NCBI GenBank assembly: GCA_963834935.1
Contig: CAWIDS010000001.1
Coordinates: 65,338-129,337, forward strand
Origin: Candidatus Nomurabacteria bacterium
Lineage (GTDB): Bacteria; Patescibacteriota; Minisyncoccia; Phycocordibacterales; CALRBL01
Direction: 5' to 3'
Length of the DNA: 64,000 nucleotides
Part shown: piece by piece, positions 6,880-25,711 of the stretch
How positions within the stretch are numbered: position 1 is the stretch's first letter
How the letters are laid out: each line of letters starts with the position of its first letter
The notes under the pieces: model-generated
Databases searched by the model: none
Seen by the model: the letters and a program-made list of their open reading frames with translations, nothing else
Told to the model about the DNA's origin: nothing
Made by a program: the position numbers and the translations under genes

Positions 6880-7572
6880 TCATTCACGATTCTCTTTGCG
6901 CCATTCTTCTATCATCTTGTGATTGCCGGAGAGCAGCACTTTCGGTACTTTGTATTTCTTTCCTTTGTATTCGAGGATTTCGGGACGGGTGTAGACGTCT
7001 GATGATGCGGCGCGGCTTTCTTCAAGCGAAGCATGGTCGCCAAGCACTCCTTCGATCTGGCGCGAAACGGTATCAATCATCAGCATGGCGGGAAGTTCGC
7101 CGCCAGTGAGCACATAATCCCCTACTGAGACCTCTTCGGCTTTAAGGATCTTCTTCACTCGAGCGTCGATTCCCTCATAGCGCCCGCAGATAAAAATAAT
7201 GTCGGTGAATTTTTTGGAAACTGCCTTGATATACGGAGTGTCCAGCTTCTTTCCAGACGGCGAGAAGAAGATTATCTTGATCGCAACCTTTTTGCCCTTT
7301 GATTTTTTTTCAATGCCTTTAATCGCCTTCTCTACGGCATTAAGCACAGGCTTCGCCTGTATGACCATGCCAGGGCCGCCACCATAAGCCTTGTCATCGA
7401 CACGCAAGTAGGGCTTCTCGTTTTTCTTCTGAGCCTTTGTCGGCTTTACCATCTCTCGCGGATTATAAAAAAAGAAATCGATCAATTTCTTTTCCTTAGC
7501 ACGAAAAAGCATCGACTCGCTGAGGTACGAATCGAACATTTGGGGAAATAGAGAGATGATATGAAAACGCAT
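6880..7572 (-). CDS. trmD: tRNA (guanine37-N1)-methyltransferase
   Basis: 230 aa. Motifs 'YGGGPGMV', 'ICGRYEGIDARV' and 'SVGDYVLTGGELPAM' are present. Confidence 0.9.
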   Translation of the reverse strand: MRFHIISLFPQMFDSYLSESMLFRAKEKKLIDFFFYNPREMVKPTKAQKKNEKPYLRVDDKAYGGGPGMVIQAKPVLNAVEKAIKGIEKKSKGKKVAIKIIFFSPSGKKLDTPYIKAVSKKFTDIIFICGRYEGIDARVKKILKAEEVSVGDYVLTGGELPAMLMIDTVSRQIEGVLGDHASLEESRAASSDVYTRPEILEYKGKKYKVPKVLLSGNHKMIEEWRKENRE

Positions 7573-15160: not shown

Positions 15161-15652
15161 CTATTGAGCAATATCGATGAGACCATTCGTAAGCGGCAAG
15201 CCATCTTCCTGGCTGACTACTATATTGTATGATCCTGGCGAAAGGCCTTGAGATCCACCTTTTACTGCATTAGATGGCGAGAGAGTAAAAGACCATTTGC
15301 CTTTAGTTACTGGAACTTTTTCTTTATAGAGAATTTGAGCAACATCACCTGTCGCATAAGGAAGTGTCTCAACATCTACCACAACTGATGATTCATTTAC
15401 TGCCGTGCCTGTGATTACTGGAAAGCTGGATTGTGAAACAACTGGATTCGAATAAATAGTAGCTGACGATTTCAAAACATTAGGCTTGGCTGCTGCAGGC
15501 GTTTGAGAAGATTGATTTGAATTACTTATGGTAGAAAGTTTCTGCTGACTGGCTTGGAGCTCGTACGTATATATAGCTCCTATGACGATAATCACGACTA
15601 ATAAAATGATAATTACCCAAAGAACGATAGAACCTTTTTGTTGATTTTTCAT
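15161..15652 (-). CDS. Hypothetical membrane-anchored (N-terminal TM) Ser/Thr-rich secreted protein
   Basis: 163 aa with a hydrophobic N-terminus 'IVLWVIIILLVVIIVIGAIY'. Confidence 0.45.
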   Translation of the reverse strand: MKNQQKGSIVLWVIIILLVVIIVIGAIYTYELQASQQKLSTISNSNQSSQTPAAAKPNVLKSSATIYSNPVVSQSSFPVITGTAVNESSVVVDVETLPYATGDVAQILYKEKVPVTKGKWSFTLSPSNAVKGGSQGLSPGSYNIVVSQEDGLPLTNGLIDIAQ

Positions 15653-15681: not shown

Positions 15682-15766
15682 ATTGGTGCCCGAGGTGGGA
15701 ATCGAACCCACATCCCTTTCGAGACACGATTTTAAGTCGTGCGCGTATACCGGTTCCGCCACTCGG
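15682..15766 (-). tRNA. tRNA-Leu (anticodon TAA)
   Basis: Cloverleaf with a long variable arm. Anticodon loop CTTAAAA. The 3' CCA is encoded. Confidence 0.8.
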
Positions 15767-15829
15767 GCATAAAAGCAACTGTAGCAAAAAATTGCCCCGA
15801 CCTCAATTTTTATGCTAACCTATCGGAAG

Positions 15830-22913: not shown

Positions 22914-24380
22914 ATGAAAAATCGTCCGCCAATCGTAGCCATTCTCGGGCATATCGACCATGGAAAGTCGACGCTTTTGGACTATATTCGCAAATCGAAC
23001 ATTACTGAGAAGGAGACGGGTGGAATCACCCAGAACATGTCGGCTTATGAAGTGGAAAAAGATGGAAAGAAAATCACTTTCCTCGATACACCAGGACATG
23101 AAGCCTTTCAGAAGCTTCGCGGACAAGGAGCGAAAGTAGCGGACATCGGCATCTTGGTGGTTTCAGCGGAAGACGGAGTGAAGACCCAAACCATTGAAGC
23201 GCTCAAAGCCATCCTTGAAGCCAAGCTTCCTTACATCGTCGCCATCAACAAGATCGACAAGGAAGGCGCTGACCTCGAATGCACCAAGCAAAGCCTTTTG
23301 GAAAATGAGATTTACGTCGAAGGATACGGCGGAAGCATTCCTTATGTTCCCGTTTCAGCAAAGACAGGCAAAGGAGTTCCCGAGCTACTCGACATGATCA
23401 GCCTGCTTTCGGAAATGGAAGAAATTACCGCCGATCCGAGCATTCCCGCAAAAGGAATCGTTCTCGAGACCAATCACGACAAGGCACGCGGAGTTTCAGC
23501 GGTACTCATCATAAAAGACGGAACTTTGAAAAGCGGAATGTTCGTGGCATCAGAAGAAGCTTTCGCGCCGGTCCGCATCTTCGAGAATAGCTCAGGCTCC
23601 CCTATCAAGGAAGCAACATTCTCTGCTCCAGTCCGAGTTGTCGGCTGGAACGGCACGCCGCGCGTCGGTGCCACATTCGCATCATTCGCTTCGAAGAAAG
23701 AAGCTGAGGAAGCTGTCGAAAGCTACAAGAAAAATAATTCTCAAACGAAAGTTCAGAACAAGAAACCTCTTCCCGCTGTCTTTGTTCCTGTTGTCATAAA
23801 AGCGAATACCTCAGGCGTCCTTGAAGCGATCGAGCACGAGATACGGAAATACGAGACCGAGAATATCGGCGTCAACATCGTCGCAGCCGGCGTCGGAGAC
23901 ATCTCAGAGAATGACATCAAGCTCGCATCCGCCAATGAAAAGACCTTGGTCATCGGCTTCAATACCAAGATCTACCCTTCCGCCTTTTCTCACGCCGATA
24001 AAACAGGAATTGAGGTAAAAGTGTTCGACATCATCTACAAGCTCGGAGATTGGGTGAAGGAAGTGATAGCCGAGCGCACTCCACGTGTCGAAGTCGAAGA
24101 AGAGCGAGGAAAAATAAAAGTATTGAAGATTTTCAGCAAGACCAAAGACAAGCAGATCGTCGGAGGCCGCGTCGAGCAAGGTTCGATCGCCTTGAATGAC
24201 GAAGTGAAGATCTTCCGTCGCGAAGCGGAAATCGGCACCGGCCGCGTCCGCGAACTTCAGCAAGCTAAAGCAAAAACCAGCGAAGTGAAAGAGGGTTTGG
24301 AATTCGGTTCAATGATCGAATCAAAAATAGAAATCGCTCCTGGAGACTATCTGAAACCGATTGCTATCGTCGTAAAATAA
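22914..24380 (+). CDS. infB: Translation initiation factor IF-2, short form lacking the N-terminal domains
   Basis: 488 aa. G-domain motifs 'GHIDHGKSTLLD', 'DTPGHEAF' and 'NKID', followed by the C-terminal beta-barrel domains. Confidence 0.9.
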   Translation: MKNRPPIVAILGHIDHGKSTLLDYIRKSNITEKETGGITQNMSAYEVEKDGKKITFLDTPGHEAFQKLRGQGAKVADIGILVVSAEDGVKTQTIEALKAILEAKLPYIVAINKIDKEGADLECTKQSLLENEIYVEGYGGSIPYVPVSAKTGKGVPELLDMISLLSEMEEITADPSIPAKGIVLETNHDKARGVSAVLIIKDGTLKSGMFVASEEAFAPVRIFENSSGSPIKEATFSAPVRVVGWNGTPRVGATFASFASKKEAEEAVESYKKNNSQTKVQNKKPLPAVFVPVVIKANTSGVLEAIEHEIRKYETENIGVNIVAAGVGDISENDIKLASANEKTLVIGFNTKIYPSAFSHADKTGIEVKVFDIIYKLGDWVKEVIAERTPRVEVEEERGKIKVLKIFSKTKDKQIVGGRVEQGSIALNDEVKIFRREAEIGTGRVRELQQAKAKTSEVKEGLEFGSMIESKIEIAPGDYLKPIAIVVK

Positions 24381-25168
24381 TGACTTACCACAACGAAAAA
24401 ATGAATGAGGAGATCCGACACCTCGCAGGAGAATTCCTCTCCCGCGAGTCGAATCGCGATGCCCTGATCACTGTCACTCGCATCGCTATGAGCGAAGATA
24501 CTAAATACGCCACGATTCTTTTCACCGTCCTTCCTGAGAACAAAGAGCACGCTGTCCTCGATTTCCTCAAGCGCCAGCGCCGCGACTTCAAACACTACGT
24601 CATGACCCACTCCAAGATCGGCCGCGTCCCCTTCTTCGATTTCGAAGTCGACAACGGCCAGAAAAGCGCTGACAAGATTTACGCTATGAATAGACACTAC
24701 TCGATATCCGTAATATTTCATATCCCCCGTCACTACTTTTAAGTTGTAAGGGAAATCCTCAATACTAAAATTTTTTCTGTCATTTTCATTTTCCGCATCA
24801 ACCTCCAGAATTCTTAATTTTTCCCCTTTAAATTCATCATACTTCAAAGAGAAAGAAATATCGTTTTGAACAAAATCAAACTCATAGCGTTTTTTCTCAA
24901 GATGAACTATTGAGGATTTCAGAAGTTCTTCATATTCTTCCTTATCAAGTTTTCTTTTATTGGTCTTTCTATTACCATCAATAGTTACTTTTTCCACCAT
25001 TAAGAACTGAACTTCTCCATTTTCAAAATTTTTAAAAACAATTTTCTTTTCGCTTTCTTCTTCTTTAGTTATCCAATCCACAATTAACGTAAATGAAATT
25101 GCATTATTTTTCTTCAGGAAATCAGTATCTATATCATCTACTATAAATTTTCTTGCGTTGTCTTCCAT
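24347..25168 (-). CDS. CYTH-domain protein (CyaB/triphosphatase-like) in an AT-rich islet. The ORF has no stop until it has run about 360 nt antisense through rbfA.
   Basis: The start M was set at 25168 because the upstream M at 25198 lies inside tRNA-Leu. CYTH motifs 'ARKFIVDD', 'KRYEFDFV', 'LRILEVDAENE' and 'VVTGDMKYYGYRV' are present. The expected domain end is near 24730. The tail is probably spurious or reflects a lost stop. Confidence 0.5.
   Translation of the reverse strand: MEDNARKFIVDDIDTDFLKKNNAISFTLIVDWITKEEESEKKIVFKNFENGEVQFLMVEKVTIDGNRKTNKRKLDKEEYEELLKSSIVHLEKKRYEFDFVQNDISFSLKYDEFKGEKLRILEVDAENENDRKNFSIEDFPYNLKVVTGDMKYYGYRVVSIHSVNLVSAFLAVVDFEIEEGDAADLGVGHDVVFEVAALALEEIEDSVLFVLRKDGEKNRGVFSIFAHSDASDSDQGIAIRLAGEEFSCEVSDLLIHFFVVVSHYFTTIAIGFR
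24380..24742 (+). CDS. rbfA: Ribosome-binding factor A
   Basis: 120 aa with the RbfA KH-like fold motif 'ALITVTRIAMSEDTKYATILFT'. The start overlaps the infB stop codon. Confidence 0.8.
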   Translation: MTYHNEKMNEEIRHLAGEFLSRESNRDALITVTRIAMSEDTKYATILFTVLPENKEHAVLDFLKRQRRDFKHYVMTHSKIGRVPFFDFEVDNGQKSADKIYAMNRHYSISVIFHIPRHYF

Positions 25169-25171
25169 TTG

Positions 25172-25253
25172 TGCGCGGGAGAGGACTCGAACCTCCATGC
25201 CTTACGGCACCAGTTCCTAAGACTGGCGTGGCTACCAATTACACCACCCGCGC
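25172..25253 (-). tRNA. tRNA-Leu (anticodon TAG)
   Basis: GCGCGGG acceptor stem, anticodon loop CTTAGGA and a long variable arm. It sits 4 nt from the CYTH start codon. Confidence 0.75.
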
Positions 25254-25281
25254 ATAATTTTATACTTACCGAATTACCGAG

Positions 25282-25354
25282 TCCACCCAGCAGGGATCGA
25301 ACCTGCGACCTTATCCTTAAGAGGCATCTGCTCTACCAGCTGAGCTATGGGTGG
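25282..25354 (-). tRNA. tRNA-Lys-like (anticodon CTT) with a poorly paired anticodon stem; possibly a pseudo-tRNA
   Basis: The acceptor, D and T arms are good (TAGCTCAGCTGGTAGAGC; GCAGGTTCGATCCCTGC). The anticodon loop is CTCTTAA, but the stem GATGC/GGATA has two mismatches. Confidence 0.5.
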
Positions 25355-25435
25355 ATATCCTTCTTATATCCTCAAGAAGGTTTGTTTTTTATAGCATTTT
25401 TCGGGTAAATAGACAAACATTTACCCTTTGAAAAA

Positions 25436-25711
25436 CTACTTTACAACTGCAGGAACTGCTTTCTCTTGGCTCAATTCAATTTCCAATCCTCCGGTGTACT
25501 TCGCTGCAAGATTATAAATCGATCCCATGATGATTCCGAGGATAAAACCTAGAACTCCATAAATGATTGGTATGAGGACGAGCGCCAATATTCCTACAAC
25601 AAGACTGGCTATGGCACCTCTGCTGTGATTCACCGCTGCTGAAATGATAAATATGAGAGCGAAAATCACTCCAAATATTGCCCCTAGAAAAGCATACAAG
25701 AAACCAAACAT
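25436..25711 (-). CDS. Small hydrophobic membrane protein, hypothetical
   Basis: 91 aa with two to three predicted TM helices. Confidence 0.4.
   Translation of the reverse strand: MFGFLYAFLGAIFGVIFALIFIISAAVNHSRGAIASLVVGILALVLIPIIYGVLGFILGIIMGSIYNLAAKYTGGLEIELSQEKAVPAVVK

Follow-up and report, generated by a model that had tools for sequence, protein, structure and literature searches.

A divergent CYTH-fold gene, probably a recent insertion, between rbfA and tRNA-Leu(TAG) in a Candidatus Nomurabacteria genome

We analyzed a 64,000-nucleotide stretch of contig CAWIDS010000001.1 from a Candidatus Nomurabacteria bacterium (hereafter the window), in which an AT-rich open reading frame (ORF) stands tail to tail with rbfA and directly behind two tRNA genes. 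On the plus strand, infB (22914-24380), encoding a short IF-2 of 488 amino acids with Pfam GTP_EFTU, IF-2 and related domains, is followed by rbfA (24380-24742), which is native to about position 24685 and ends in a TAA stop codon at 24740-24742; the Pfam RBFA domain covers residues 5-100 of the 120 in its product (E 9e-14). The minus strand carries two native tRNA genes, tRNA-Lys(CTT) at 25281-25354 and tRNA-Leu(TAG) at 25172-25253, both called by ARAGORN and scoring 57.2 and 53.6 bits, respectively, in Rfam, which found nothing else over the locus. Just upstream of tRNA-Leu, on the same strand, consensus scanning and direct reading pick out a -10-like TATAAAAT (25257-25264) as a candidate promoter. 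The tRNA-Leu gene does not encode CCA, and immediately downstream of its discriminator base the three-nucleotide spacer CAA (25169-25171), which forms the right junction, leads to the ATG (25168-25166) of the ORF on the same strand; an earlier note on this DNA had rightly placed this start codon against the tRNA 3′ end, at a distance it gave as 4 nucleotides. The first 161 codons (24686-25168) make up a foreign coding segment of CYTH/TTM fold, delimited by its ATG, its GC content, its homologues and an AlphaFold model, and the frame then continues on the minus strand as a read-through extension of 112 codons (24347-24685), codon-aligned antisense to rbfA and outside the family domain, with a stop codon at 24349-24347. 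The left junction zone, in which the two convergent genes come together tail to tail, is at 24679-24692; here GC content falls and the similarity of RbfA to its relatives ends.

The base composition of the islet sets it apart from the rest of the window. Its 483 nucleotides (24686-25168) contain 29.4% GC and the core at 24743-25167 contains 28.7%, compared with a mean of 48.1% (standard deviation 3.4%) for 480-nucleotide segments across the 64 kb. The islet is therefore about 5.6 standard deviations under the mean, and it is the lowest point of the window and its sole 480-nucleotide stretch below 37% GC, in agreement with the AT-rich islet that the earlier note had described and had proposed to check by a sliding GC profile. 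The GC content at third codon positions (GC3) is 0.26 in the islet gene, 5 standard deviations under the host mean, versus 0.572 ± 0.060 (minimum 0.38) in 52 long ORFs of the window. On a finer scale, GC is 0.55-0.60 at 24600-24660, 0.17-0.33 at 24740-25140 and about 0.55 within tRNA-Leu, and the left edge descends from about 0.6 to about 0.35 over 24640-24700. The foreign block spans about 24,68x-25,169, some 485 nucleotides; the interval first proposed for it, 24743-25440, takes in both native tRNAs as well as intergenic sequence and misses the last ~57 nucleotides of the foreign gene, under the rbfA tail.

Orthologous loci were found using infB (IF-2) as an anchor. The host belongs to the Paceibacteria, and its IF-2 shares 52-58% identity with the IF-2 of Paceibacterota, Nomurabacteria and Minisyncoccia metagenome-assembled genomes; scans for IF-2 in GTDB genomes and JGI metagenomes returned nothing above 58% identity, and no other contig turned up in exact look-ups of the 283-amino-acid ORF of the window or of its RbfA. 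The infB-rbfA pair is conserved in about 35 related Paceibacteria loci, and the CYTH-like gene is in none of them. Directly after rbfA, the relatives have a cluster of tRNA-Cys(GCA), tRNA-Leu(TAA), tRNA-Lys(CTT) and tRNA-Leu(TAG) genes whose order and orientation vary, and two of these loci give the layout of the window with the site empty. In L011, 1 nucleotide separates the rbfA stop codon from the 3′ end of tRNA-Leu(tag) on the complementary strand; this tRNA is ~93% identical to that of the window and is followed by tRNA-Lys(ctt), and L096 has the same order and orientation with a gap of 12 nucleotides between rbfA and the tRNA. The window and L011 are alike through ...CCCGCGCACA at the tRNA end, after which L011 has the rbfA stop codon and the window has A-ATG. 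At the left junction, the similarity of RbfA to its relatives stops after ...GQKSADKI (residue ~100-104). The RbfA proteins of the relatives are 100-108 amino acids long and end in ...GEKNRQKIDELLxx, with a continuation D-x-(L/I)-x-x-x-stop, and the last ~17-20 residues of the window RbfA, up to the TAA at 24740-24742, are read from the antisense strand of the foreign gene. As aligned, the inserted DNA appears to be almost exactly one ORF, which seems to have taken the place of the last rbfA codons and stop codon. The composition break and the absence from orthologous loci point to a lineage-specific, horizontally acquired insertion, and there is good support for its having come recently, by horizontal transfer, from a patescibacterial donor of low GC content; the insertion at a tRNA 3′ end that the earlier note had suspected from composition thus held up in the ortholog check, through the ~35 loci without the gene, the two empty sites and the GC3 value.

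The tRNA cluster next to rbfA is an insertion-prone site in Paceibacteria, as AT-rich single ORFs fill inter-tRNA gaps of the cluster in four relatives (L092:3541-4134, L098:7090-7758, L021:9098-9766 and L101:2166-2867), with a GC content of 0.30-0.36 in the gaps against 0.43-0.45 for the loci. Three of the four resemble LAGLIDADG homing endonucleases (Pfam LAGLIDADG_3, E 6e-8 to 2e-13), and the ORF of L101 is unclassified. Stop-less rbfA tails running into tRNA genes also recur in the lineage, since the rbfA of L098 (6598-6957) has no stop codon before tRNA-Leu(taa) (complement 6908-6990) and runs ~16 codons antisense into the tRNA. Between infB and lepA in the window we found no integrase-like ORF, as the earlier note had stated, and neither a direct repeat of the tRNA-Leu 3′ end nor att-like repeats, only short matches at chance level. 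A 12-nucleotide exact inverted match connects the interior of rbfA (24435-24446, plus strand) with 25174-25185, in the 3′ acceptor/T-arm of tRNA-Leu; a match of this kind is estimated to have a chance of roughly 4% in a 1.2-kb region, and it was rejected as an att site because its orientation is wrong. No relatives of the gene were found in IMG/VR, so carriage by a phage is not supported. Elsewhere in the window, a second low-GC3 gene (15161-15652, minus strand; GC3 0.29, GC 0.40) lies 31 nucleotides downstream of a same-strand tRNA-Leu(TAA) (15684-15768), with TATAAT 8 nucleotides before its ATG; its 163-amino-acid product has an N-terminal membrane anchor and no Pfam match, and it may be another acquired gene beside a tRNA.

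The foreign gene belongs to a conserved family of free-standing Patescibacteria proteins of ~160-180 amino acids. Searches with the window protein recovered 83 homologues, which are 45-66% identical to it and reach E values as low as 2e-63, and the family profile collected 356 clusters (90% identity) at E<=1e-3 and 97 representatives (50% level) at E<=1e-10. Most members are unnamed and a few have the automatic JGI label 'CYTH domain-containing protein'. The three labelled members are two Saccharimonadia (Saccharimonadales and Saccharibacteria) and one Taylorbacteria. The gene neighborhood differed in each of the ten loci examined, and in most of these the gene is 3-8 GC points under its flanks, versus 19 points in the window. 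L175 is a second islet-like case, with a GC content of 0.35 in a background of 0.55 (~20 points), 198 nucleotides after a tRNA-Arg. In three of the ten other loci (L001, L171 and L175), a same-strand tRNA (Gly-tcc, Ile-gat and Arg-ccg, respectively) ends 180-200 nucleotides upstream of the gene. The tRNA-associated loci of the family are L001:3750-4486, L171:2745-3495, L175:615-1370 and L003:2813-4492, in the last of which the tRNA is a tRNA-Lys 1.1 kb upstream, with a SocA/Panacea gene after it; a rough, uncomputed estimate puts the chance of an upstream tRNA at ~1% per locus. Apart from the promoter, no common element links the tRNA-gene spacers of L001, L171 and L175, and in L001, the locus of the closest homologue, an rve integrase adjoins the gene on its downstream side.

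The earlier note had called the product a CYTH protein and had proposed a search with the Pfam model PF01928, which matches the window protein neither as the full 273-residue ORF nor as its first 161 or 159 residues (E<=10), nor any of 54 family members at E<=1. Pfam and NCBIfam as a whole likewise have no match for the window protein (for NCBIfam even at E<=10) or for any of the 54 members at E<=1. Neither the protein nor the family has a significant match in PDB sequence searches, run with phmmer and with a profile, or in PHROGs and PADLOC; matches to AcrIF25 (E 0.02) and Sac3 (E 0.036) were dismissed as noise. The AlphaFold model of residues 1-161 (pLDDT 93, pTM 0.85) has the predicted fold that defines the superfamily, a tunnel formed by a beta-barrel of eight strands, and all 20 best Foldseek matches in the PDB are CYTH/TTM structures. 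NE1496 comes first (E 4e-7, TM 0.65/0.70, with an overall range of 0.65-0.71, 21% identity), followed by AtTTM3, SaTTM, BH2851, GBAA_1210, YgiF, ThTPase and Cet1. At the sequence level, hhalign aligned the family profile with NE1496 over 135 columns at E 3e-4, with a probability of only 39%, matching the blocks RKF, EKxRY, LEV(E/D) and EVT(E/G)D, and the family profile also reaches the proteins P0262 (E 1.4e-8) and P0267 (E 1.1e-6), which at 29.5 and 24.3 bits both exceed the Pfam CYTH gathering score of 23.2. Because of the fold matches and these two sequence-level links, we place the family, by predicted fold and distant homology, as a divergent branch of the CYTH/TTM superfamily. The CYTH label therefore stands by fold and by indirect profile links and fails by PF01928 and by the hallmark motif ExExK.

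On strand beta-8 of CYTH/TTM proteins, the first Glu of a C-terminal ExE binds metal 1 and the second binds metal 2. The counterpart in the family is E122-V-D124, with both residues invariant, so that the first Glu is retained and the second is Asp. The N-terminal ExExK, which binds metal and substrate, is the hallmark of the superfamily (PMC8233210, PMC4641920), and its counterpart here is D3-N4-A5-R6-K7 (DxAxK), in which D3, A5 and K7 are invariant in 54 sequences. Other tunnel charges are mostly retained in the family (K7, K42, K60, EKxRY and E122). Class IV cyclases (AC-IV) are recognized by HFxxxxExExK together with Ala in place of the second Glu of the C-terminal ExE (PMC8233210); the N-terminus of the family reads M-E-D-N-A-R-K, or ...KKETLEDNARK in longer members, with no HF, and with DxAxK and Asp124 at these positions the 'CyaB-like' description of the earlier note is not supported. 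We observed several candidate fusions, of a CYTH-like domain with NUDIX (P0109 and P0164), with an AAA_33/AAA_28 P-loop kinase (P0093, P0094, P0272 and P0274) or with another N-terminal domain (P0174), and those with NUDIX and P-loop kinase domains hint at a nucleotide or phosphoanhydride ligand. A triphosphate or nucleotide is the probable ligand of the family, a reading backed by these occasional fusions, and the second-metal site would be altered or missing, with two-metal chemistry altered and possibly absent. The window copy agrees with 47 of the 49 columns that are at least 90% conserved, which is normal for the family (the median is 1 deviation and the maximum is 6), and at residue 145 it has Val where 53 of 53 other members have Glu.

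Every homologue terminates 4-7 residues past YYGYRV, so the stop codon of the window copy would be expected at codon ~162 (24685-24683, near 24684 ± 5) and not near 24730, where the earlier note had looked for it. The assembled frame reads ...YRVVSIHSVNL... and onward with no in-frame stop before 24349-24347, which confirms the antisense run through rbfA that the note had put at about 360 nucleotides; it comprises ~112 codons. On the minus strand, both other frames have a stop codon at the expected end (+1, TAA at 24681-24679; +2, TAG at 24686-24684), so a single-base indel in the last few codons would suffice for the loss, and such an indel, real or introduced in assembly, seems the likeliest cause. 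A single-base error of sequencing or assembly, with the true end at codon ~162-163, is a serious possibility that we nonetheless rate below an even chance and that is compatible with an insertion; it is favored by the TAA and TAG lying exactly at the homologue ends with only the assembled frame open, whereas the library entry P0165 has the same gene call, although it derives from the same assembly and is not independent, and the rbfA tail would be foreign-encoded all the same. The 112-codon extension is found in no homologue and has a pLDDT below 50 over residues 164-273, suggesting a shadow ORF that is predicted to be disordered and to form no domain. TTA, CTA and TCA are all missing from the 104 native rbfA codons, which keeps the frame of the extension open; the chance of this is ~0.15-0.17 under host codon usage (1.7% TTA/CTA/TCA), and there are 48 comparable open runs in the window. 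An alternative genetic code was dismissed, as the neighboring genes read normally in table 11. The stop-less antisense run is an artefact of the tail-to-tail junction made by the insertion, together with a probable 1-nucleotide frameshift. P0165 (24347-25198, minus strand) is an annotation artefact of 283 amino acids that starts at an ATG within tRNA-Leu and joins the real domain to 112 residues of antisense rbfA, and it could seed spurious families; for annotation it also matters that rbfA has an end of foreign origin.

The start codon is preceded in 10 of 10 homologue loci by a -10-like hexamer (TATAAT, TATACT, TACAAT or AATAAT) that ends 6-8 nucleotides from it, against a background of 2-3% of positions or ATGs in the same loci, suggesting that the family is natively leaderless. 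The window copy has no -10 box at that distance, as tRNA-Leu fills the space, and since there is no room between the tRNA and the ATG for a terminator, any tRNA-Leu precursor would have to run into the ORF; a consensus scan found no terminator-like site on the minus strand from the ORF start to 24000. A -10 box lies 5-8 nucleotides ahead of the first ATG in about 15% of the long host ORFs, which makes it probable that leaderless-type messages are translated in this host. CCA-less tRNA precursors are matured at the 3′ end by the RNase Z route, that is, endonucleolytic cleavage after the discriminator base. Expression of the foreign gene as a tRNA-punctuated, near-leaderless mRNA starting 3 nucleotides before the AUG is suggested by this arrangement, and we regard it as rather unlikely. 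An extreme variant, in which the segment would have entered as the cDNA of a leaderless mRNA, its boundaries therefore being transcript ends, is highly improbable.

Taken together, we hold with good confidence that a segment of ~485 nucleotides from a lower-GC donor was inserted at the rbfA/tRNA-Leu junction, losing its promoter and stop codon, and is either a very recent arrival or an incipient pseudogene. We propose that the segment, essentially a bare reading frame from 1 nucleotide before the ATG to about the stop codon, would have entered the spacer that runs from the rbfA stop codon to the tRNA-Leu(TAG) 3′ end, a spacer 1-12 nucleotides long in related Paceibacteria. Insertion would have removed the native ends of both convergent genes, so that rbfA would now close in ~17-20 foreign-encoded codons and the CYTH-like frame, its stop lost by a likely 1-base indel, would read 112 codons antisense through rbfA. 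With the leaderless -10 promoter of the family lost, the window copy would be transcribed only through read-through from the tRNA-Lys/tRNA-Leu unit, and the TATAAAAT upstream of tRNA-Leu, if it is a promoter, would drive the foreign ORF too. Cleavage after the tRNA-Leu discriminator could then leave a CAA-AUG mRNA whose 3-nucleotide leader would mimic the native leaderless state. The copy would be a very recent arrival, with about even chances of being non-functional already, and it may be decaying, as its promoter and stop codon are gone and Val145 replaces a conserved Glu.

Several points weigh against this explanation. The nearest relative stands at 58% IF-2 identity, too distant to serve as a sister strain for the age of the insertion or for the missing stop codon. 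The site bears no integrase, att repeats or other trace of an insertion mechanism. The 161 intact codons and the agreement at 47 of 49 conserved positions fit recency or continued selection alike, and both the tRNA-driven transcription and the leaderless-like translation are what we infer from the arrangement of the genes.

In a rival explanation, the gene would be a functional accessory enzyme under selection, a triphosphatase or a nucleotide-signal enzyme, expressed from the tRNA unit as a protein of 273 amino acids or of ~162 if a stop codon is present. The reading frame is indeed intact over 161 codons in very AT-rich DNA, the conserved positions are kept in a family that is itself widespread and conserved, and leaderless-type starts seem usable in a host where ~15% of long ORFs have a -10 box at 5-8 nucleotides. 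However, the gene lacks both its own promoter and its stop codon, disorder is predicted for the extension, Val145 departs from the Glu of 53 other members, every related locus lacks the gene and the ExExK metal site is degenerate throughout the family, so we consider a selected enzyme unlikely. That the AT-rich block is a metagenome assembly chimera, foreign to this genome, is very improbable. The abrupt composition change at both ends would suit it, but rbfA to the left of the block and tRNA-Leu(tag) and tRNA-Lys(ctt) to its right are both in synteny with single loci of relatives, and a chimera would require two precise joins within a spacer of 1-12 nucleotides. It is equally improbable that the gene was present here ancestrally and that all sampled relatives have lost it, since the relatives are distant enough (IF-2 <=58%) for many losses to be conceivable, but a GC3 of 0.26 in a host of GC3 0.57, the deficit of just 3-8 GC points that the family gene has elsewhere (L175, at ~20, excepted), the lack of conserved synteny in any family locus examined and the intact empty site in two relatives all speak against it.

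A recent insertion thus remains our preferred explanation, and it would give a clean, datable case of gene flow between Patescibacteria classes, with an identifiable empty site and single-gene resolution. The analysis also defines a widespread CYTH-fold family unseen by Pfam, with more than 350 clusters at 90% identity, mostly from Saccharimonadia, and shows that in Paceibacteria AT-rich single genes land repeatedly in the tRNA cluster after rbfA. If the proposed mode of expression is true, a promoterless leaderless gene could be adopted by a tRNA transcription unit, as a bacterial counterpart to mitochondrial tRNA punctuation. Two further features lie on the tRNA side of the locus. A terminator-like hairpin with a T-run (25359-25390, plus strand) stands past both tRNAs, and if it ends the infB-rbfA transcript, the mRNA would carry the foreign gene and both tRNAs in antisense. 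Between tRNA-Lys and lepA, a minus-strand gene (25436-25711) encodes a 91-amino-acid protein with several predicted membrane spans; its GC3 is lowish (0.39), it has no significant family match and it is missing from the related loci examined.

Among known proteins, the closest comparison is NE1496 (NeuTTM; PDB 2FBL/3TYP), an inorganic triphosphatase from Nitrosomonas europaea, which is likewise a single domain of ~150 amino acids with an eight-stranded tunnel and has the RKF, EKxRY, LEV(E/D) and EVT(E/G)D blocks in common with the family, at 20-21% identity. It differs in having E-I-E-R-K where the family has D-N-A-R-K, with the Ala invariant in 54 members, and in its ExE, which is ExD in the family; the Pfam CYTH model, moreover, does not detect the family. 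CyaB (AC-IV) has the superfamily fold in common with the family, and the 'CyaB-like' label comes from the family name, whereas its HFxxxxExExK and Ala contrast with no HF, DxAxK and Asp here. CYTH members without ExExK include the cluster with AtTTM1/2, which have pyrophosphatase activity and are kinase-TTM fusions (PMC8233210). They provide a precedent for a TTM fold that acts on phosphoanhydrides without the hallmark motif, PDB 7z67 being among the Foldseek matches, and the kinase-TTM fusions have a likeness in the family members with a P-loop kinase, which are candidate fusions. The plant proteins differ in being multi-domain and membrane-anchored and have no detectable close sequence relationship to the family.

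With respect to expression, mitochondrial transcripts are punctuated by tRNAs, and bacteria have tRNA-mRNA co-transcripts such as that of the tufB operon. As in these systems, an mRNA would lie directly downstream of a tRNA, whose excision would set the 5′ end near the AUG, with the difference that in the window this is read from sequence alone; in the literature searched, we found no bacterial precedent for a tRNA-punctuated mRNA. As to location, the islet resembles tRNA-adjacent islets and islands in being a gene of foreign composition on the 3′ side of a tRNA and missing from orthologous loci, and it differs in having no integrase or duplicated tRNA 3′ end and in consisting of one ORF only, cut at the start codon and near the stop codon. 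A tRNA-adjacent islet and a CYTH superfamily member are thus kinds already known, and the acquisition is a clear but fairly ordinary case, whereas the DxAxK family and the capture of a promoterless gene, precise to the ORF, behind a tRNA deserve to be recorded as variants.

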